A stretch of 62,860 bases of DNA, filler included, from Basidiobolus ranarum (Eukaryota): the NCBI GenBank assembly GCA_040143965.1. It is 53 parts of 53 records of this genome, joined end to end, with 100 filler letters (N's around TTAATTAATTAA, not from the genome) between each part and the next. Parts side by side here need not be neighbours in the genome. Positions count along the whole stretch, not along the records: positions 5,965 to 7,056 come from JASJQH010013352.1; 52 more parts are not named here. The stretch is one strand, 5' to 3'. Position numbers and translations under genes: made by a program. Below are positions 4,673 through 61,677 of this stretch, in pieces; positions within the stretch are counted from its first letter, which is position 1, and every line of letters begins with the position of its first letter. Under the pieces are notes generated by a model. The model had not been told where the DNA came from. It ran no database searches and saw nothing but the letters and a program-made list of their open reading frames with translations.

Positions 4673-5966
4673 NNNNNNNNNNNNNNNNNNNNNNNNNNNN
4701 NNNNNNNNNNNNNNNNTTAATTAATTAANNNNNNNNNNNNNNNNNNNNNNNNNNNNNNNNNNNNNNNNNNNNATTAGCAATTAGGTTTTGTTGCATATTG
4801 GCACTTGTGCCCCATAGCTATTTGTAATTTGGTGAAATGTTAGATTTATTGCATAAATTATTCAATATTAAGACTTTATTTTGCCAATAGAATACAACTA
4901 ATAGAAGGATCTAAAAAGGGTAACAAATTGAATTGTAAACAGCAAGAACAGTACTGTCACAAAGTTAGCAAACTGCCATAATTAAGCTTGAAATATTCAC
5001 AGCTTTTGAAACAATCTGAATTACTTTGATTAGACTAACATTGGGCACTTTTCACAAAATAATGAAGCAATTAATTTGAGGAATGGTGATTTTGCTATTA
5101 GAGTTGTTGAGATCTTGCCAAAAAAGAGGCTCAAGTATACAATGAAGTTCAATCATATAATTTTCCCAATTGATTCAAAACTCCAAAGTCCCAGCTAAGG
5201 TAGTACCAGTTTTTTCAATTGTCACATATTCTCAGCCCTTGCTAAAAAATTAGATAAGTTTAATTGCTAGGTTCTAATTATGCTCTCATATAGACTTTTA
5301 CTTGGTTAATTTGCTTCTCTCTCTCTGTCCCTCCCAATTGTTCTCATTGCTTAACAAATGTTATTCATTAACATTTTCACTTCTTCAACACTTCTTTTTT
5401 TTTCACATCAAGTGATGCTTTTTAGCTGAATTAAAAAACAACAATTTCTATTAAGATCCTTAGTACTATTATATTATAATGTTTCTGTTTGAAATTACTT
5501 CTGTTCTACCTCAAGAGTATCATATTATTGCATCAAGGTCTTGACACTTAAACGTTGAGATTTAGTTCTTTGCTTCATTCAGTTTGCTGACTGACTTCAT
5601 CCACTGACACTTGTTTCTGTCAACAGTTTTCATGGATTAACACTTCTTATTTATTAGCACTCTTTATATATTAACAACTTTGTTATTTGAAACTTTTTAT
5701 CTTTGATTGTTTTGTTCTATTATCAATATTCATGTACTGATAAGTTTGATGTGATGACACTTAATTCATTAACATAGTTTAACCTTCAACAACTTGTTTC
5801 TACTAATGATTTGAGTCTATTGAAACTGCTTACCTATTCACCCTTTTGATCCATTAGCACTTTCNNNNNNNNNNNNNNNNNNNNNNNNNNNNNNNNNNNN
5901 NNNNNNNNTTAATTAATTAANNNNNNNNNNNNNNNNNNNNNNNNNNNNNNNNNNNNNNNNNNNNCT

Positions 5967-6518
5967 ACCTTATACAACAGCGAAATTGTCACCAAATCTG
6001 TTTTAAATCATATCCTAAAAAAATTAACTTCCAAACAAGGCGTAGAGTTTGTTTCTAACCTCCAAAAAATCTGCATTAGATATTTACATTGGAAAGGTTT
6101 GTCCACAATATCAAAAGAATGCCATTCTCCAGCTACGGGCCTCAAAAGTATGGTATCCTCAGGAGCCAAAGGAAACAACTTGAACCTCACCCAAATTAGC
6201 CAACAACTAGGACAACAATACATGTACGGTGAACCTGTTAAATGCCAACTCCCCTACAAATATTTCAACGACCTTGACAACCAATTACAAAATGGATACA
6301 TAAATTCTTCTTACGTCAAAGGATTAAATCCATACGAGTTTTTTGTTCACCAAATGGCAGCCAGAGAAGGAATTGTTAATACTGGTGTTAGTACCGCATC
6401 TACAGGATATCTCAACCGAAGAGCTTGCAAACTTATGGGAGACGTAAAAGTTATGTACAACAACACTATTGGCACAGATAATTGCACCATTAGAATTTTG
6501 AATGATGACTTTTTGTAA
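5967..6518 (+). CDS. Virus-like DNA-directed RNA polymerase largest subunit (RPB1/beta-prime-like), C-terminal part; 5' end cut by the contig edge
   Basis: Frame is open from the contig edge: ..LQKICIRYLHWKGLST..MVSSGAKGNNLNLTQISQQLGQQ..GYINSSYVKGLNPYEFFVHQMAAREGIVNTGVSTASTGYLNRR..KVMYNNT, matching the RPB1 F region and bridge helix; no introns; too divergent for cellular Pol I, II or III. Confidence 0.9.
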   Translation, partial: TLYNSEIVTKSVLNHILKKLTSKQGVEFVSNLQKICIRYLHWKGLSTISKECHSPATGLKSMVSSGAKGNNLNLTQISQQLGQQYMYGEPVKCQLPYKYFNDLDNQLQNGYINSSYVKGLNPYEFFVHQMAAREGIVNTGVSTASTGYLNRRACKLMGDVKVMYNNTIGTDNCTIRILNDDFL

Positions 6519-6653
6519 ACTTATTTATTTTTTTAAAACCCATACGTGTCATAAAAAATATTTTAACAACGTCGATTCCTAAAACAAACATAATATTTTT
6601 TTCAAACGAAGATACTCTTGCACGAAAAATTTGTCTACACAAAAAATACAAAC

Positions 6654-7056
6654 ATGAGAGATCCCTACGAAGTATTAGATAGTATGTTAGTATGCAGAGG
6701 ATATAAAAAAGATCCGTCTACATTAATGTACGTTAAGGATAACAAGTCTTTACCAATTTATCATGATATTAACCAAGACCCGTTGGATGTTCTCCAATTT
6801 ATAAAAGACTGTACCGATCCAGACTTTATTTTACTTATCTTGAGTATACCCATGACAAAAAAAAACATAGATAAGTTTAATTCGAACTTAGATTTAAAAT
6901 ATTATGACAAAGTATTTTTCATGGATGAGATTTTAGACGATCCTACAACTAATCCACTGGTTCCTGTACACAGGCTAGCTACCAAAGAAGAATTGGACTA
7001 TTTACAACAAAAGCACATACTTACGAGTACATTGCCAAAATTATTAACCACTGATA
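6654..7056 (+). CDS. RPB5-like RNA polymerase subunit, 3' truncated
   Basis: N-terminal MLVCRGY (compare RPB5 MxxDRGY) and C-terminal NPLVPVHRLATKEELDYLQQKHILTSTLPKLLTTD (compare HELVPKH..LPRIQ.xD); ATG at 6654 preferred over TTG at 6618. Confidence 0.8.
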
Positions 7057-8515: not shown

Positions 8516-8992
8516 ATTTTATACATTCTGAAAAGTAGTTGTTGAGTTTAATAATGAGTTACGTTGCCCGTTTGGCAGGCTTTTACACCTATCCCGTTTT
8601 TCTTCGCCATAACTACCGTGCTGATTGATTTTTAGTAAAAATAGTTTGAATTAGTAATTTACGTATATACTCTTGTTTCAATGATTCCATGATTGGATAG
8701 GTGCTTATACCTGTATCCCAGCCATCCCCAACCCAGAGAAAAAGTTCCGATTCTCATCTTAGTGCTTAACTGACGCACACATGCTCCAACGAAACCTTCC
8801 TCGAATTCGTAACTCTTTGCTTTAATCTAGCTCCCCAAACGTTCCATTCATATTTCGCAGTGACTGCTTTCTTCACAAGCCGATCAACCATCAAGAAACT
8901 TGGTTGCTCACGTATACCCTATATTATGTTATATCCATATACTACACTCGTAACAAGCAGTTTGCCTTCGCTCCTAAAAGGATTTTAAAAAG

Positions 8993-9065
8993 TGGAGATT
9001 CCGGGTATCGATCCCGGTGCCTATCGCATGCGAAGCGATCGCTCTACCATTTGAGCTAAACCCCC
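8993..9065 (-). tRNA. tRNA-Ala (anticodon CGC)
   Basis: 73-nt cloverleaf GGGGGTTTAGCTCAAATGGTAGAGCGATCGCTTCGCATGCGATAGGCACCGGGATCGATACCCGGAATCTCCA; G3:U70 pair; T5 terminator. Confidence 0.97.
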
Positions 9066-9125
9066 AAAGCTAGAATAGTTGGCAGTTGCAAATTACGAAT
9101 ACAAGTATTAATATTAAGAAATAAA

Positions 9126-9160
9126 TACTCCAATGCCAAGAATCGAACCAAGGACCTCTA
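9126..9160 (-). pseudogene. Possible tRNA relic (T-arm/B-box half only)
   Basis: GAGGTCCTTGGTTCGATTCTTGGCATTGGAG contains a B-box; no foldable D or anticodon arm. Confidence 0.35.
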
Positions 9161-9540
9161 AAACTCGCATAAATTGACCACTCTATCTGCCATATGGAAG
9201 TTGGTTTTGGTGAAATTGATGCTTTTTCCCTTTTGTTTTCCTAGTAACATCTAGTAATTGAGACACATTGCCCTCCATTTCATACTCCTATCATATCATG
9301 CAATCGCAATATTTTATTTCTCAATCAAATTCGGGTCAGTTTAAGCCTTCAAGAGCTGCTTCTGTGAATCACTTACTTTCTCAATAGATTGGTACTCAGT
9401 GCCAACTTGTTCCTCTTTAGCATGGGTAGGGATATAATAANNNNNNNNNNNNNNNNNNNNNNNNNNNNNNNNNNNNNNNNNNNNTTAATTAATTAANNNN
9501 NNNNNNNNNNNNNNNNNNNNNNNNNNNNNNNNNNNNNNNN

Positions 9541-9667
9541 AAAGATTCTTTCCAAAGTATCTTCCTTGTCCAGTCTTGTCTTGTCTTGTGGTCTACACCC
9601 AAGTACTCTCCTGCCTTCTAGCCTCTTGTCATTATTTCCAGTCTTTGTCCAGTTCCTTATTGTGACA
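9541..9667 (+). repeat. Gypsy LTR family E (3' end)
   Basis: Ends CCTTATTGTGACA and contains (GTCTT)n. Confidence 0.85.
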
Positions 9668-9890
9668 GCATCATTTTACCAAAGGTTCCCTCCCCTAGGA
9701 ACTCCTAGAATGTATAGCAAGGGCCTATGATTTCTAAGAATTGTGAAAGATGCAGCAGGGAATGTATTGAATACTGGCATAGATTCAGTCTATCTTCTTT
9801 AAACCTGTAATCAGATTTTTCATATCTAATTACAAAATCTTTGTATAGTTGCTGTATCTGCCAGAGATCTGCCAATGAGAGTTGGCAAGA
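9668..9890 (-). mobile_element. EnSpm transposase C-terminal fragment
   Basis: LADLWQIQQLYKDFVIRYE..SIHSLLHL..IIGPCYTF*EF; matches 31870-32050. Confidence 0.8.
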
Positions 9891-10019
9891 ATTTTGCCAC
9901 CCCATTTTGATGTAGCAAGATCCTGATATAGTAATTAGATTACTAAGCAGCAAATGAGTCATCAATCATATAATGTATTAGTTTGGGTATAAATACAGGA
10001 TCTTGTGTGATAATAATTG

Positions 10020-10495
10020 AATTACCAGAAAAGGAGAATTTTAACAATTGGTGGAAATACAGGGAACTAGAGCTGGGGCTGTGTTCACAATATCTGTGGG
10101 AGTGATATGAGCTATTATTGAGGGAATTTGGACAAGTTTGAAAATTCCAATATAAAATCACCAAATCTCAGAAAACTTACCAATATATGAAATATATGTT
10201 TATATTTTGAGCTAAGTGTTATTTGACCAAGTAATGCTAACTAACTTGAGTGTAATAAATAAAATAGTTAGGTGTACAAAGATAAACAAGATAAAAAAGA
10301 TGAATTCAACAAATGGCCACACTCCCACTCCACTAAATATTCTTATAGCTTAATCCTAACTTAAATCTTAATACTTCAAGTTTTGAGTTTGGTAACAGTT
10401 TGGTAAGGCTGTCAGGAATCATGTCTCCAGTTAGACAATACTCTAATTTGATATGCTTATTTTCAATAGCATCACTAACAAAGTGATGTTGAGTA
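10020..10495 (-). mobile_element. Diverged Copia-B RNase H end, PPT and LTR
   Basis: QHHFVSDAIENKHI..DSLTKLL; PPT; sequence similar to LTR-B; left boundary approximate. Confidence 0.7.
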
Positions 10496-13321: not shown

Positions 13322-14204
13322 CTAAATAGTCATATAAATTAATCCTAATAAAGGTCTAAATTTCTCAAATTTCTGTATAGCTAATGGCTTGGTTAGTATA
13401 TCAGCAATCATGTCTTCGGTAGAACAATAATTTAAGTCAATAAACTTATTCTCTATAGTCTCTATAATGAAGTGATGCTTAATATCTATATGTTTGCTTC
13501 GATTATGAAATGTGGGATTTTTAGCTAATTTGATACAACTTTGATGATCTTGAAATATTGAAGTTGGTGTGTTTTGAGAATAACCCAAATCTGTTAAGAG
13601 TTTTCTTAGCCATATTGCTTCTTTTGTTGCTTCACAGGCAGCCATGTATTCAGCTTCTGTTGTGGAAGGTGCTACAGTAGGTTGTTTCTTTGAATTCCAA
13701 GAAATAGCTCCATTATAGCAAAGAAATAAGTATCCTGTTGTAGATCTCCTGTCTTCAATATCTCTTCCCCAATTTGCATCTGAATATCCCATCAGATCAA
13801 AGTTTGATCCAGAATATGTGTATTTTAAGCATAGATCCACAGTACCTTTCAAATATCTGAAAATCCGCTTAACTGCTATGATTTGATCAGATCCATAATT
13901 TTGAAGATATTGGCACATAACTCCCACAGAATATGCAATATCTGGCCGTGTTCCAACCATGATATACATCAAACTACCAACCATAGATTGATAAGGAAAT
14001 TTCTGGCTTTCATTTGAATCCAAGAATGTCTGATTTGAGCCATTTTTGGTCAAGTTAAGATTTGTCTCCATTGGGGTAGATACTGGATTACATTCTTCCA
14101 TTTTAAACTTCTTTAGTATATCTAGGATATACTTAGACTGGTTTAAAGTTATTGTTTTGGTAGTTCTATCTATCTTAATTTGGATTCCAAGATAGTATGT
14201 TGTA
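13322..14204 (-). mobile_element. Ty1/Copia RT C-terminus and RNase H (family C), open frame
   Basis: [58 protein letters not shown]. Confidence 0.95.
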
Positions 14205-17877: not shown

Positions 17878-18967
17878 CATCCAGAAGTAAAAATAAGCCA
17901 GGAAACTGGTGGAACACTTCCAATGATGATGTATATGCTTATGTAGCATTTTGTGACAAACCACAGACTCTGGAGCAAACTCTGGAGTGTCCATACCCAA
18001 AATTATTGGAAAAAACAGTGTCAGATGAGTTTTCGTCACTTCTGGACAATAAAACATGGGTTTCAAGTCCTCTTCCATCAGGGAGAAAGCCAATAGGTTG
18101 CAATTGGGTCTAAAAAGCCAAAAACTGAGCTGATGGAACCATAGAATGGTACAAAGTAAGATTAGTTCCAAAGGCTATTACCAGACTCCAGGAGTTAATT
18201 TTAATGAAATTTTTGCTCCAGTAGCTAAGTTTAGCTCCATTGGATTAATCCTAGCACTCTCAGCCATATAAACCTTGATCTACAGCAAATGGATTTAAAA
18301 ACAGCCTCTCTGAATGGAAATCTAGAAGAGATCTATATGGAGCAATCAGATGGATTTGTTGACCCAAATCATACTGCTATTGTCTGTAAACTGCAAAAAG
18401 TGCTAAACGGACTCAAGCAAGCACCAAGGGCATGGTACAATGAGATAGATACCTATTTGGAATCACCAGAATTCCAAAAATGCACAGCAGATCACAGTAT
18501 TTACATCAAAACAACCGGAAATAGGTCTTTATCTTGGCACTATAAGTAGATGACATCATCATTGCCACAAATGATCTAGAAGCACTTAATCAGACAAAAA
18601 ACAGCTTATCAAACCATTTTCACATGCCTGATATGGGTAAATTGAGTTATTTTCTTGGAGTCCAAATAAGAGTGATAAGCCTAATCCAAAAATCAAGGTG
18701 AATCAGTCTAGATACATTCTAGATGTCCTAAAAAGATTCAACATCAAGAATAGCAAGCCTGTATCAACACCATTGGATCCCAAAGTGAAACAGATTAAAA
18801 TATCATCCAATTTGGCCCAAAATGACTCAAATCAAAGCCAGGAGTTCCCTTATCAATCCATGGTGGGTAGTTCAATGTAAATAAAGTTTGGAACACATCC
18901 AGATATTGCTGTGGCAGTTGGAACTGTCAGCCAATATCTCAAAAATACATGATTGGATCACAAAACT
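17878..18967 (+). mobile_element. Ty1/Copia reverse transcriptase, degenerate
   Basis: KGYYQTPG, QMDLKTA, GLKQAPRAW and YQSMVGS, with stops and frameshifts. Confidence 0.9.
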
Positions 18968-19067
18968 NNNNNNNNNNNNNNNNNNNNNNNNNNNNNNNNN
19001 NNNNNNNNNNNTTAATTAATTAANNNNNNNNNNNNNNNNNNNNNNNNNNNNNNNNNNNNNNNNNNNN

Positions 19068-19283
19068 GTTATAGGACCCAGCCATGGTAATTGACAGATC
19101 ACACCAGATGGTGTACTAGCAGGCTGGATCGAGCAGCACAATCTGAACTGGTCTGATGGAACAAGTCTAGTGTCTGATTGGGTGTTAGAGGACCCAGCCA
19201 TGGTAATTGACAGATCGCGCCAGATGGTGTACTAGTAGGCTGGATTGAGCAGCACAATCTGACCTGGTCCAATGAACAAGTCT
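19068..19283 (-). mobile_element. Two tandem ends of a Harbinger-like element (one copy inserted in another)
   Basis: Direct repeats of about 100 bp, each ending GAACAAGTCT (19168 and 19283) and followed by AGT and AAT; reverse complement of 28052-28170. Confidence 0.75.
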
Positions 19284-20257
19284 AATAGTGTGTTGCTTAA
19301 TCCATGTGAAGAGCAAAGACTTAAAAAGTCTCTTGAACAGTATTCCCCACCATGATTGTTCTACTGTACCCTTTTTTTTGTGCAGAATACTTCTCTACTG
19401 TTGCTTTGTAGAGCTTGAACACAGCTAAGATGTCAGATTGTGTTTTGACAAAGATTACCAAATAGTAACTTTTTTGATATGAAGAAAGGTCATAAAGTAC
19501 TTTTTGCTAGCCAGTGAGACATTTTTCATGGGCCCACATAGATCAGAATAAGCAAGGGCAGAATTCTGGGTAGATTGGATTACCTCCAGGGCCTGAAACC
19601 TGATTTCTGTGAAGTTTTCAATACATGCATCTTTGACATCAATCCAATTTAGTTATATTTTCAATTTCTAAGCCTGGAACAAGCTGAATTTGGATCATTT
19701 TGGTTGGTTTTTGGTCCCCAATGTGGCCCAATCTTCTATGCCATGTTGAACAGCTTAATTTCCCAGTTTTTGCCAAGTTTGCATGCTCAGAATGTATTTT
19801 GTTTATATATAGCCCATATAAGCTTTGTGTTTTGATCCCAGTAGCTAAATTGTTATTATTTTAATTTGTGATAGAACATGCAGCCTGACTGAACACAAAA
19901 TTGTTTATATATTTGGCTCATAGAGTAAATCTACAAATTCTGCAAGTGGTGTAGCTGAATTTTGATCCATATTGAGCACATCTGTGGCCTTACCAACTGT
20001 AACTAGTGCATATTTATCACCTAAGTGGAGTTTCCTTATTTGGATGGGTTTAAGCTGCAAAAACAATCTTTCTTGTTTTACATATGTTGGGAAGCTTCCA
20101 AATCAATGTACCATGCTTCTGAGTCTCCCTTAATGGTTACTGATAGGGCAGCCACAANNNNNNNNNNNNNNNNNNNNNNNNNNNNNNNNNNNNNNNNNNN
20201 NTTAATTAATTAANNNNNNNNNNNNNNNNNNNNNNNNNNNNNNNNNNNNNNNNNNNN

Positions 20258-21447: not shown

Positions 21448-22167
21448 GATACCTGTGCTTGGGTGAAGAATCCAAGACATCAGCCCTATGGCCTGCTACA
21501 GCCACTTGCAATTCCTGATCAGCAGTGGAAATCCATATCCCTGGAATTTATAACTGATCTACCCTTGTCTGCCAAATATGATTCAATTCTGGTAATTGTT
21601 GACCATCTAATAAAGATGGCCCACTTTGTGCCCTGCAACAAGTCAATTGATGCAAAACAAACAGCAGAATTGGTAACTCAAAACATCTTCCACCTACATG
21701 GACTCCCTGAAACTATCATCTCTGACCAAGGACCTCAGTTTGCTTCCAAATTCTGGAAAAGTCTGCTCCATACCTTGGGTATCTCTGCCAATCTCTCCAC
21801 TGCCTTCCATACCTAATCTGATGGCAAAACAGAAAGAGTCAATTAAGTTTTGGAACAATATTAGCAATTTACTATCAACTATAATCAACATAATTGGACA
21901 CAACTCTTGCCTCTTGCTGAATTTGCTTACAACAACTCTTATCATACCTCAACAAAGCAAACTCCTTTCTTTGCAAATTATGGATTCCATTCTTGTTTCA
22001 CAATTCATCCACCATCCAATCTACCTTACCATGCTGCCTCAGACCATGCCACTTTCCTCAAGGACATCCATAAACAATAAATATCTAAGTCAGAGCATGC
22101 TCAATCCCAATACAAGAACTTTGTTTATAAGAAAAGAAAGCCAAGCCCAGATCTCAAGCCAGAAGAT
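21448..22167 (+). mobile_element. Ty3/Gypsy integrase, degenerate
   Basis: [65 protein letters not shown]. Confidence 0.92.
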
Positions 22168-32150: not shown

Positions 32151-33238
32151 CTGAAAAAGATATTTAATCACATTTATTGATGATTATAAAAGATACACTT
32201 GGGGCTACCTTATGGAAAGAAAAGAAGAAGCTCTCTCCTTCCTTAGAGATTTTAAAACACTTGTGGAGACTGTGACTGGAACCAAAATCAAAAAAATATG
32301 TACTCATAATGGTGGAGAATATACTTCACCACTGTTTAAGCACTTTTGCAAAGTTCATGGAATTAAGCAAGAAACTACTGCCCCATATTCATCTCAACAA
32401 AATGGTGTTGCTGAAAGAGCTAACAGGACTATAATAGAAATGGCAAGATCTGTGATAAATGCATCAAATTTTCTCATAACTTTTAGGCAGAATCTGTTGC
32501 TCCAGCTGTATACCTGAAGAATAGGAGTTTTACCAGAAGTTTGTCTAACTCTACACTATATCAAGCTTGGTTTGGAGTTAAACCTGATGTAAAACATTTC
32601 ACAATCTTTGGATTCATTGCTTATGTCAAAATTATGACCAAAAATTGGTCTAAATTTGATCCAAAAAGTAAGAAAGATATATTTCTGGGTTATTGTACTC
32701 AAACTAAGGCCTACAGACTCTATGATACCAAAATTTCCAAGTTAATCAAGTCCAGGGATGCTTTGTTCAATGAAAATGAAAAATATTTATTGGGAAAATA
32801 TGGGCTGTTTGGAGGAAATTTAGAAAAGTGGAGTTGTGAACAGCTTGGTGAGATAAATATTTATTGTCCAGAAATAAAGCATTTATACATTTTTGTGGAA
32901 ATACAGAAAACTAACACTAGGGTTGTGTTCAGAACATCTGTGGGAGTAAAATGAGCTATAGTTGGGGTAATTTGGACAAGTTTGAAATTTCCAATATGGA
33001 ATTGCTAATTCTCACATTATTCACATATATATAATATATGTTCCAATTTTCAGTTAAGTGATATTTGACTAAGTAATGTTATCTAACTTATATGTGATAC
33101 ATGAAATAGTTAGATGTATAAAGACCGAGATAACAAATTGGATAAAGACAATAAACTTCAACAATTTTCACCCAAAATGACCTCAGATGATGACAAAAAT
33201 CAATTTTCTCCTGATCCAATCATTCAAATTGATTCAAA
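32151..33238 (+). mobile_element. Ty1/Copia integrase with a solo LTR-B (32788-33163, minus strand) inserted
   Basis: TFIDDY, NGGEY, QQNGVAERANRT, SKFDPKS..FLGY; near-perfect 5-bp TSD (ATATT/ATTTT). Confidence 0.92.
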
Positions 33239-36901: not shown

Positions 36902-37987
36902 CTGTAGAGAGATATAAAGCTAGATTTGTGGCTAAAGGATACACTCAAATGGAAGGAGTGGACTACAATGAAACTTTTGCTCCTGTAGCAAAGTTTAATT
37001 CCATCAGAACCGACCAGCAGTAGCAGCAAAACACAGCTTAAAAATCCACCAAATGGATGTTAAAACTGCTTTTTTGAATGGGGACTTGGAAGAGGATATA
37101 TTCATAGACCAACCAGATGGTTTTGTGGATCCTGAGCACCCTGAGGACATGTGTAAGCTACAAAAAGCACTATATGGACTTAAACAATCACGCGGGGCCT
37201 GGTACACTATGATAGCTACCTACTTGGAATCACTTGATTACCAAAAGAGTACGGTGGATTTTGGGATCTACTTTAAGACAGATAAGGACAGTAAGGTGAT
37301 ACTTGCCTTTTACGTAAATGATCTGATTTTAGGTAGCAATCATGATGAAGCTCTCAGGAACACCAAAAGAGATCTATCAGTCCAAATCAAGATGACCAAT
37401 TTAGGCAAACTTACGTATTTTTTAGGTCTGCAGATCCATACAGATATATTCAGGAAATCTATTACTCTAAATCAATCTAAATACATCTCAGATATTCTCA
37501 GATGTTACAGGATGGAGAATTGCAAGCCAGTAGCAACTCCCATGGATCCAGATGTGAAACTAGTCAAAAATCCCATCAAAAATGAGAAAATTGGCCAAAT
37601 ATGGCTCAAAATATGTCATTTGAAAGCCCTGAGTTTCCTTGTCAATCTATGGTAGGTGGTTTGATCTATGCTATGACTGGAACCCGGCAAGATATCTCTT
37701 TTGCAGTGGGAGTAGTCAGCCAACATGTGCAAAACCCAGGATCTGAGCATTATGCAGCAGTTAAGCAGATTTTCAGATATTTGAATGGGATAATTGATCC
37801 GGGATTAGGATCCATATATTCTTACAAGAATAAGGATCTAATTGGGTTTAGTGATGCAGATTGGGGATGTGATATTGAGGACAGAAGATCTATCACCAGA
37901 TCTATCACCAGATATATCTTTCTCTACAGTGAAGCAGCCATATCTTGGAATAGCAAGAAGCAACCCACCATAGCACTTTCATTAACT
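36902..37987 (+). mobile_element. Ty1/Copia reverse transcriptase
   Basis: [35 protein letters not shown]. Confidence 0.95.
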
Positions 37988-51126: not shown

Positions 51127-52209
51127 TCCCACTACCATGGCTGGTGACCTCTCCACACAGATTGCTACACGTTCATCTGGTCGAACACCAAGCTCAATCA
51201 GCTGATGTGCAAGACGGTTAGCACGTTCATTTAATTCACCATAACTTAACGTCTGATCTTCATATACGAGTGCAGCGGCTGTTGGGTCACGTAAAGCCTG
51301 GTCTTCAAAAAGCTGATGAATACATTGATGCTCTGGATATGGTGTTGCTGTTTCATTCCATGACCGAAGTAAGAGTTCGCGCTCATCCATAGGCAGCACT
51401 TCCAACTGATAAACCGGCATTTGTGGTGTATTCTCCAGTGCTTCAACTATACTCTGTAGTGTTTTTTGCATATAGTTATTCACACGAGTAGAGTCGAAAG
51501 GGTCTACATTCTGACTAGTAAGACCAAGTGCTGTCCCGAAATCATCAACGTCCATAGTCAAGGGGTAGGTAGTACGCTCTGGCAAGTACGAGAGCTCTAT
51601 TCCACAGATCTGGTTACTTCTATTCGACACGCTATTAGTGTGTCGGTAATTTAGCAGTGCGTTAAAAAGTGGTGCACCGGCTGGCACGCCGCTGCATCCT
51701 TGAGCTAATACTAGTGGTGCATGTTCATGCAGGAGAAGTTCAGCAAGATTGGCATGGATCTGACGCACACTATCCTGAACGCTACTACTACTTAAATCGA
51801 CACGCAACGGAAGCGTATTGATGAAAGGGCCTAATGTTTGGTCAGTTCTTTTGCCAGTCTGCATCCTCCCTACCAATATGGTGCCGAATACCACCTGTTG
51901 CTGATCGCTGATACATGCGAGAACACGACCCCAAGCCAGATGACACAAACATGCTACACTTACATTGAATTTCTTGGACTGAGCTCGCAGCCGTTCATTC
52001 AACTCCTGTGATAATATACAATGGGAAATGCTCACATTCAGATTATCTAAATGAACATCCGCTAGCCCAAAAGGTAATGTAGGTTCTTCGATATTACTTA
52101 ACATATCAGTGAAGAATTGCTTGTGTGACTCTAGATCGTCCATACAGATCTGTGCTATTAAATTACGGAACGGTTGAGCTGGAGGGAGAGCATCACCCCG
52201 ACCTTCCAT
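51127..52209 (-). CDS. Non-ribosomal peptide synthetase fragment (dual epimerisation/condensation-type C domain end and adenylation domain start)
   Basis: PFRNLIAQ, EPTLPFGL, VVFGTILVGRM, GPFINTLPLR, HEHAPLVLAQGCSGV, ALLNYRH, then the A1 motif LSYGELNERANRLAHQL; single open frame, no introns. Confidence 0.95.
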
Positions 52210-60594: not shown

Positions 60595-61677
60595 GCCTTC
60601 AAAGAAAAAGACAGATTGGCATTTAGGGAAATATGTCTAAGACTGGGATCACAACAACTTATGCTAGTCAGAGATGCTGACTCTGCCAAGAATGCATGGG
60701 AAATCCTAGTGGAACATCATGAGCAAAAAGGGCTTGCTCACTTGATGATGCTACAAAGAAAATTCTTAAACTCTTGTATGTCTGAGGATTCAGATATTAT
60801 GACATATGTAAATGGTGTCAAGAAACTTGCCCAACAACTGGAATCAGTGAATTATGAAGTACCTGAAATGGATATAATTCTTACCATAATCAATGGTCTT
60901 CCTGAATCATATTCAGCCCTTGTACTCACTTTGGAAGCAATTGGGGATAAGCTTACTCAGCATTATTTCATCTCTCATCTATGTCAAGAAGAATTTAAAA
61001 AGAAAGACAAAAGTCAGCTTGCATATGCATTTTATTCTCAAAATAGCCAACCAGAAAGGAGCACTGTGAAATGTTATAAATGTGGAAAACTGGGACATAT
61101 AGCATGTTACTGCAGAACAAAGAAGAAATGGGTTTCAAAGAAAAAGGAAGCATACAACACCACTAAAAGAGGAACTGAACACTATGTACTTATGGCAGCC
61201 TCTGAATAAGGAAATGACTCTGTTGATGTATGGATTCTAGATTCTGGTGCAAGTAATCAGATGTGTCACAATAGAAACATAATGCATCACTATAAGGAAA
61301 TAGAACCTCTGGACATCACAGTAGCTGGAAGAAACAAACTGGTCGCATATGGAATGGGAAAGATCACACTTGAGTTACACATAAGTAAAACCAAAAGTGT
61401 AATAATAACCTTGGAAGATGTCTTATATATTCCATCATTTACAACAAATCTGTTTTTGATTGGAGCAATTGAAAAGAAACATTATGATGTCAAATTTAGC
61501 CAAGGAGAGTGACCATATACAAATTAAAGGACTTGATAGTAGCAACCAGAACAAGAATTGGGAATCTATATCACCTGTATATTGCACCAATAACTGAGAC
61601 TATTTCTAACTGTGAAACAATTACTTCTGGAAACTTGATGACTTGGCATCAGTGCTTGGGGCGTCTAAACTATCATA
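60595..61677 (+). mobile_element. Ty1/Copia gag, protease and pre-integrase region (distinct family)
   Basis: SAKNAWEIL, NGLPESY, CYKCGKLGHIACYC, WILDSGASNQM, EDVLYIP, WHQCLG. Confidence 0.93.

Follow-up and report, generated by a model that had tools for sequence, protein, structure and literature searches.

A conserved RPB1-type polymerase half, cut after the bridge helix and lacking funnel helices, on a short contig of the Basidiobolus ranarum assembly

RPB1-like and Rpb5-like genes on a short contig

The window analysed here is a 62,860-base stretch of the Basidiobolus ranarum assembly GCA_040143965.1, made up of 53 contigs of 1083–1093 bp each, set in descending order and joined by 100-base linkers (44 N, TTAATTAATTAA, 44 N). 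It holds about 58 kb of real sequence; adjacent contigs are not necessarily neighbours in the genome, and features cannot cross the joiners. One of these contigs carries the 3′ end of a gene for the N-terminal half (N-half) of an RPB1-type largest RNA polymerase subunit, followed by a gene for an Rpb5-like subunit. The RPB1-like gene stops just after the bridge helix and has a gap in place of the funnel helices of RNA polymerase II (Pol II). Both traits are confirmed, and the evidence supports a conserved, streamlined largest subunit made in two pieces, in a polymerase of giant-virus type. The features of the contig are as follows.

5965..7056, no strand assigned: contig with the RPB1-like and Rpb5-like genes; 1092 bp, 33% G+C, a joiner on either side
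5967..6518, + strand: gene encoding the N-terminal half of an RPB1-type largest subunit, 3′ end only; 183 codons and TAA, open at the 5′ end
6093..6173, + strand: junction without the funnel (secondary-channel rim) helices; KGLSTISKEC, HSPA, TGLKSMVSSGAKG
6348..6443, + strand: bridge helix, beginning HQMAAREGIVNTGVSTASTGYLNRR; family signature AAREG(I/V)(V/I)(N/S)TGVSTA.TGYLNRRACK
6423..6518, + strand: tail of 31 residues after GYLNRR, then TAA; two short strands in the model, and the conserved end of the N-half
6519..6653, + strand: intergenic spacer of 135 bp, 24% G+C, with five in-frame TAA codons and without RPB1-like coding
6654..7055, + strand: gene for an Rpb5-like subunit; ATG and 134 codons, running off the 3′ edge of the contig about 30 residues before its expected end

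The frame at 5967–6515 encodes 183 residues without an internal stop and closes with TAA at 6516–6518. In a phmmer search against the PDB, the 183-residue fragment matched Rpb1 of Schizosaccharomyces pombe at an E value of 1.8e-23 and archaeal A′ at 3e-19, with bacterial beta′ reaching only about 1e-5. Pfam assigned Rpb1_5 (domain 5, 6.7e-17) and Rpb1_4 (domain 4, 5e-09) above their cut-offs, together with the end of domain 3 below it. Judged by these matches, the fragment is unambiguously the largest subunit of a multisubunit RNA polymerase, of RPB1 rather than bacterial type. The NADFDGDEMN catalytic loop would lie upstream of the contig edge; its columns are at least 90% conserved in 85 aligned relatives, and FNADFDGDEM can be read in all 16 relatives displayed in full.

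An earlier reading of the sequence alone had placed the end of the open reading frame (ORF) about 30 amino acids (aa) past GYLNRR. This is what we find: GYLNRR occupies residues 147–152 and 31 residues follow before the stop, so that the trigger loop is not on this polypeptide. The same reading called the subunit minimal. The frame is open at the 5′ edge and the visible subunit is therefore 183 residues, so the size of the whole can be judged through relatives alone.

Missing funnel helices

The sequence-only reading had also proposed that KGLSTISKEC is the equivalent of GFSTGIGDT in yeast Rpb1, that it is joined to the next motif by about four residues, and that a funnel stretch of about 70 residues is missing between them. 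The joining residues are HSPA (53–56), lying between KGLSTISKEC (residues 43–52; 6093–6122) and TGLKSMVSSGAKG (residues 57–69; 6135–6173), and Pfam, the family profile and structure all side with the motif equivalence. From the G of GLST to SGAKG there are 21 residues in the window and 88 in S. pombe Rpb1 (G667 to A755). About 67 residues are thus absent between GLSTISKEC and SGAKG, a result on which Pfam coordinates, alignment of the family profile with Pol II and structure alignment concur.

In the Pfam alignment, residues 10–47 match the last part of domain 3 (model positions 120–157 of 162), and residues 49–98 match domain 4 only from model position 41 onwards. A profile built from 16 full-length relatives and the window aligns '..lrwlsekGltvsled' with 'NYWLLHNGFSIGIGD' of S. 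pombe, and likewise with Komagataella pastoris, and assigns to insert states the bulk of what Pol II has between that motif and MV.AGSKG. The AlphaFold (AF2) model of the fragment, with a predicted local distance difference test score (pLDDT) of 78.8, passes from a helix at residues 22–44 directly to a helix at 58–64, with no hairpin between them. VIA-align superposes model residues 46–136 on yeast Rpb1 663–824 (2vum_A; Z 8.6, root-mean-square deviation 2.9, 89 aligned) and residues 68–136 on yeast Rpb1 752–824 (5vvs_A; Z 7.8, 67 aligned), so that 22 window residues stand in place of 89 yeast residues and the funnel hairpin is absent. A single-sequence phmmer alignment dissents, laying residues 20–54 on yeast 702–745, which are the funnel helices themselves; this placement was overruled by the family profile and the structure.

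Near-total loss of the funnel is not a trait of the whole family. Of the 86 aligned sequences (window included), 77 have a funnel span of 44–76 residues and the other nine one of 14–29 (P0080, P0030, P0046, P0010, the window, P0004, P0001, P0071 and P0002), which indicates that the family as a whole has about half a funnel and a few branches almost none. The nearest relatives are also short, with 24 residues in P0001 (52% identity) and 29 in P0002 (48%) against 21 in the window, and these three form one funnel-poor clade with a support of 99 in a FastTree tree. The trait requires at least three to four changes on that tree, whose long branches leave the number of independent losses unsure.

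A shared end point across the family

Relatives came from a search limited to longer proteins (n = 86), and the family amounts to 85 clusters at 90% identity in one search. All but one of the 86 are 446–822 aa long, contain Rpb1 domains 1–5 and end 24–37 residues past GY.NRR; the exception, P0086 (934 aa), ends 71 residues past it. Among 22 loci taken from IMG/VR and Joint Genome Institute (JGI) metagenomes, 16 share the end point of the window, five belong to a second class described below and one is cut by the end of its contig. The stop codon was read in 15 of the same-end loci and is TAA in nine, TGA in four and TAG in two. The altered bridge helix, REGIVNTGVST in place of REGLIDTAVKT, to which the sequence-only reading had drawn attention, is nearly invariant throughout the family. 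With the window fragment as sole query, an IMG/VR search returned no relative, and among one genome per prokaryote species 271 pattern matches included no relative.

The P0001 protein (607 aa) was modelled with 86 sequences at a pLDDT of 84, and Foldseek aligned the model over about 850 columns to Pol II Rpb1, archaeal A′ (872–880 aa) and RPB1 of African swine fever virus (ASFV). This coverage indicates that the N-half spans the same ground as A′ minus about 250–270 residues. Profile alignment with Pol II locates the reductions in the clamp head, pore 1, the funnel and the loop ahead of the bridge helix, and the zinc motifs of the clamp core are kept in the relatives.

A separate trigger-loop half

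In one relative the missing part of the subunit was found as a gene of its own. Locus L018 carries an N-half gene at 8780–10420 and, 8 kb away on the opposite strand, a 323-aa ORF (18742–19710, −) that matches Pfam Rpb1_5 over positions 69–255 (E 1.5e-11) and that we call the C-half. It starts with its own Met at the trigger-loop helix (M..EPGDPVGLQAIQ....ATQSNLSSFHTAG). A 75,805-nt contig is the recorded source of this protein as well as of the N-half P0080.

Eight such proteins were combined in a profile, which aligns with yeast Rpb1 1059–1448 and with archaeal A″ 61–383. Since the N-half ends at about yeast Rpb1 residue 870, about 190 Rpb1 residues have no counterpart in either half; by the domain maps of Rpb1 these would be the foot region. 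When the C-half profile was run against 1.84 billion representatives, 6250 proteins matched at E ≤0.001 and 87 at ≤1e-30. Among the best 150 of these 6250 matches, 45 are stand-alone proteins of 240–400 aa in which the match begins within the first 25 residues, and another large group has 395–510 aa with the match beginning near residue 70. Unsplit proteins rank low, for example P0232 (1461 aa, match at 1023–1414).

In P0144 (1158 aa), P0159 (500 aa) and P0162 (509 aa) the match lies at the N terminus and is followed by 170–800 extra residues, a layout that may reflect fusion of the trigger-loop half to another part. The ORFs immediately 3′ of N-halves (L004 10600–11580, L013 4068–4949 and others) gave no Pfam match at E ≤1 and are accordingly not established as C-halves. 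A 240-aa C-half fragment akin to that of L018 (18742–19710), P0091, is recorded at NCBI as 'hypothetical protein [Rhizopus arrhizus]', a label that suggests members of the virus family in, or integrated into, fungal assemblies.

Rpb5 and the viral gene context

The ORF downstream of the spacer aligns with Rpb5 of loci L004, L015 and L016, with conserved VP.HR.AT.EE...LP, and matches Rpb5 of L004 by tblastn at 8e-10; against the protein collection it found the window's own product alone. In these three loci the Rpb5 gene likewise adjoins or lies near the N-half gene. The spacer contains runs of seven T at 6528–6534 and 6596–6602, the first of them 12 nt past the RPB1-like stop. Runs of T act as terminators in certain cytoplasmic DNA viruses.

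Whereas the window contig holds only the RPB1-like and Rpb5-like genes, neighbours that are nucleocytoplasmic large DNA virus (NCLDV) hallmarks are known from the relatives. Their contigs encode RPB2, MutS with HNH, mRNA capping enzyme, family B DNA polymerase (748–776 aa), D5-type primase-helicase, SNF2/DEAD helicases (some with inteins), dUTPase and the small subunit of ribonucleotide reductase. RPB2 usually has a size of about 1150–1220 aa and is short in this family (891 aa in L001, 4089–6764, −; 955 aa in L007, 3490–6354, −), so that compaction seems to extend to the whole enzyme. Named structural neighbours of the subunit are all giant-virus RPB1s, at 15–23% identity, among them those of Pithovirus LCPAC104, invertebrate iridescent virus 3, Bodo saltans virus, Satyrvirus and Aureococcus virus, and an Atlas feature search gave Nucleocytoviricota clusters as a lead only. 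Inteins interrupt the helicase adjoining the RPB1 N-half gene in L015 (10391–12796) and L017 (606–1526), the D5 primase-helicase in L011 (3–3134) and the trigger loop of the unsplit RPB1 in L024 (6021–10562).

Comparison with known split and unsplit polymerases

Archaea, plastids, some phages and yeast linear plasmids all provide examples of a largest subunit in separate pieces. Archaeal Rpo1N/Rpo1C (A′/A″) likewise divide the subunit over two polypeptides, with the break between bridge helix and trigger loop, and the sequence-only reading had placed the end of the ORF close to this split point. The window is cut about 27–31 residues upstream of it (residue 169 pairs with 839 of 880, or with 861 of 906), and the C-half of the family is without the first 60 or so residues of A″. 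The N-half is about 270 residues shorter than A′, with its funnel halved or absent. In archaea the A″ gene lies directly 3′ of A′ in one operon; here the two halves are not adjacent, Rpb5 being next in the window and the C-half of L018 lying 8 kb off. Unlike for the archaeal subunits, no relative of the family was found among one genome per prokaryote species.

Unsplit NCLDV RPB1s, such as those of ASFV (8q3b), vaccinia (Rpo147, 6rfl) and the metagenomic loci L023 and L025, represent the same subunit in a similar genomic neighbourhood, and the structural matches include chains of ASFV and vaccinia. They are single ORFs of 1286–1528 aa, whereas a split subunit of about 920 aa in total is expected here. 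The metagenomic unsplit proteins (L023, L025) have the canonical REGLIDTAVKT, a full funnel and the foot, in contrast to REG(I/V)(V/I)(N/S)TGVST in the present family.

A second class of giant-virus N-halves, about 890–930 aa long, is found at five of the 22 loci (L002, L011, L012, L019 and L020) and at 14 of 80 IMG/VR loci (L026–L105). These also end between the bridge helix and the trigger loop, with no C-half within 10 kb, but they stop 59–71 residues past the motif, as the archaeal A′ tail does, and have full-size domains 1–4; by comparison the members of the window family end about 30 residues sooner and are some 300 residues shorter. UniProt holds RPB1 entries of 830–905 aa from Pithovirus LCPAC104 and Satyrvirus. 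The second class indicates that, in giant-virus data, RPB1 pieces encoded by separate ORFs are no rarity. A further 40 of the 80 IMG/VR loci (for example L051, L053 and L062) encode beta′-like proteins of about 900 aa with a tail of about 250 residues and a bacterial-type bridge helix (RKGLLDVALNTG.SGYLSRKL).

The closest precedent for both the bridge-helix/trigger-loop cut and the loss of the rim helices, the two features seen in the window family, is the polymerase of yeast linear plasmids. The beta′-like part of the pGKL2 polymerase is reported to be split, with the bridge helix on K2ORF6p and the trigger helices and loop on K2ORF7p, and the enzyme to lack most of the clamp as well as the rim helices of the secondary channel (PMC6211774). 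The polymerase genes of yeast linear plasmids appear, according to a further report, to be derived from Nucleocytoviricota (PMC13348850). The plasmid enzyme differs in fusing beta and beta′ in a 974-aa protein with a C-piece of 132 aa, whereas the window family has RPB2 as a separate gene (L001, L005, L007) and keeps the zinc motifs of the clamp core.

Two viral identities were considered and set aside. Mininucleoviridae, crustacean viruses with genomes of 70–74 kb, are reported to have a reduced NCLDV transcription set with RPB1, RPB2 and RPB5 and highly divergent subunits (PMC6960288). They were dropped because of low identity and differing gene sets: relatives of the window family have a capping enzyme and helicases, which that account gives as absent from those viruses. 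The DhV1 polymerase (779 aa) ranks 28th among the structural matches, with 16% identity in the structural alignment. Mriyaviruses were dropped because they encode no polymerase. A full-text literature search, supplements aside, found no description of this split family.

A two-piece largest subunit and its alternatives

We consider it probable (about 0.8) that the contig derives from an NCLDV-like element encoding part of a compact multisubunit polymerase whose largest subunit consists of two polypeptides. That element may exist as a free virus, or the fragmented eukaryotic assembly may contain an endogenous copy of it. In such an enzyme the N-half, about 600 aa in relatives, would contribute the zinc clamp core and the active site (NADFDGDEMN), along with the bridge helix and a reduced pore and funnel, and would terminate just past a small beta hairpin of two short strands after that helix. 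A separate protein of about 320 aa, made elsewhere, would supply the trigger loop, cleft and jaw and dock non-covalently on the N-half, as archaeal A″ does on A′. The lineage of the window is without the funnel (rim) helices, about 67 residues, and in relatives with both halves known the foot segment of about 190 residues has no counterpart either.

In Pol II, TFIIS reaches the active site via the secondary channel. With the funnel helices gone, and with them the rim of this channel, the channel is probably open and a TFIIS-type factor unlikely; judging from sequence features, the funnel-less enzyme probably does not use one. A crude regular expression for the TFIIS-type zinc ribbon found no motif in 289,277 bases of loci plus window, which lends weak support given that these genomes are partial.

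Several points weigh against this interpretation. The contig possibly represents a viral fragment that is endogenous, and not a functioning gene; its intact frames over 317 codons counter old decay and say nothing on expression. The contig shows 183 residues, while about 400 N-terminal residues and the catalytic motif are visible in relatives and not on it. No C-half was found in the window by tblastn and profile searches of its real sequence, nor within 10 kb of other N-halves (22 loci by tblastn, 80 further loci by profile), the matches in the loci being confined to L018 and the inside of unsplit genes, so that a C-half gene in this genome is something we infer. The earlier suggestion of a split polymerase with its trigger loop on a separate gene is thus realized in a relative, through the 323-aa protein of L018, and not in the window itself. 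That locus, the lone directly observed pair of halves, is distant (36% identity, on a long branch). The VIA-align Z values, near 8, count as middling in the tool's own guidance, and the homology rests on sequence; the case for the funnel gap depends on the concordance of the Pfam, profile and structure tests. The Rpb5 call combines a Pfam Rpb5_C match at E 0.08, below the cut-off, with alignment to relatives, and neither a capsid gene nor a packaging ATPase was seen in any flank examined.

Of the competing explanations, decay would make the contig a pseudogene or a degenerating endogenous viral fragment, with the stop and the funnel deletion as private damage. We regard this as very unlikely. 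The contig is just 1.09 kb long and sits amid retrotransposon-rich host contigs, as such a fragment might, but its stop position is common to 85 of the 86 relatives and to 16 loci, its nearest relatives have the short linker too, both the RPB1-like and the Rpb5-like frame are uninterrupted, and residues invariant in the family are retained. The sequence-only reading had preferred design to decay and had named privacy of the stop or the deletion as the observation that would speak against it; neither is private to this contig, the stop recurring across the relatives and the short linker in P0001 and P0002. The copy could be endogenous, yet its architecture is inherited, and the idea of damage is largely refuted by these comparisons. 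Also hard to sustain, and highly improbable in our estimate, is a single continuous RPB1 gene interrupted by an intron, expressed by trans-splicing, or continued by read-through or a reassigned TAA. TAA accounts for all five in-frame stops of the spacer, beyond which the following ORF keeps to the same frame; introns and inteins are moreover common in giant-virus polymerase genes, and inteins were found in the loci here. The in-frame follower is nevertheless Rpb5, not RPB1; relatives finish at the same residue through TAA, TGA or TAG; and the genes 3′ of the N-half vary by locus (helicase, unknown ORFs, Rpb5). The C-half of L018 lies 8 kb off on the opposite strand with its own Met, and 45 stand-alone C-halves among the best 150 matches begin with the trigger loop. 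On the same evidence we dropped a ciliate-type code and an intron as readings of the TAA, while trans-splicing of two messages would be compatible with the sequence data.

A cellular gene, whether the A′ of an archaeal contaminant or a fragment of the host nuclear RPB1, RPA1 or RPC1, is scarcely credible, even though the top matches among solved structures are Pol II and archaeal A′ and the split lies near the archaeal one. Against it stand the failure to find a relative among one genome per prokaryote species, the length of about 880 aa, full funnel and 57-residue tail of archaeal A′, the viral hallmark genes on the contigs of relatives, and the Rpb5 gene 135 bp 3′ with no intron, which misfits a eukaryotic nuclear locus.

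A further, unlikely extension is that the compact family is the viral ancestor or sister of the two-subunit polymerase of fungal cytoplasmic killer plasmids, with the window contig as a fungus-associated member. The link is drawn from the split between bridge helix and trigger loop, the little or absent funnel, the absence of a foot and the C-half labelled Rhizopus arrhizus. If true, the family would be a living intermediate between the full giant-virus polymerase and the minimal plasmid enzyme, and it is possibly relevant to the origin of such minimal polymerases.

What is new is a large coherent family in which a subunit of archaeo-eukaryotic type has its break about 30 residues ahead of the archaeal one, with pieces of about 600 and 320 aa, and in which several branches are without the funnel helices lining the secondary channel. 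A natural minimal Pol II-like enzyme of this kind would offer a test bed for the dispensability of funnel and foot in catalysis and for the need for cleavage factors. For annotation, it follows that such N-halves should not be marked as truncated pseudogenes.

Other features of the window

Most contigs of the window have little coding, and as a whole it resembles the tail of small contigs in the draft assembly of a eukaryote. Several contigs carry pieces of long terminal repeat (LTR) retroelements (copia or gypsy), the host assembly being LTR-rich, and one is filled by a fragment of a non-ribosomal peptide synthetase gene.

13325..14203 (− strand), 36999..37652 (+ strand), 21448..21813 (+ strand), 32155..32514 (+ strand) and 60595..61206 (+ strand): fragments of copia-type reverse transcriptase, integrase and gag
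51127..52209, − strand: non-ribosomal peptide synthetase fragment, comprising a condensation domain and the first part of an adenylation domain, in an open frame filling the contig

At 45% G+C, the contig with the synthetase fragment (51127–52209) is the window maximum; it may be of host or bacterial origin.

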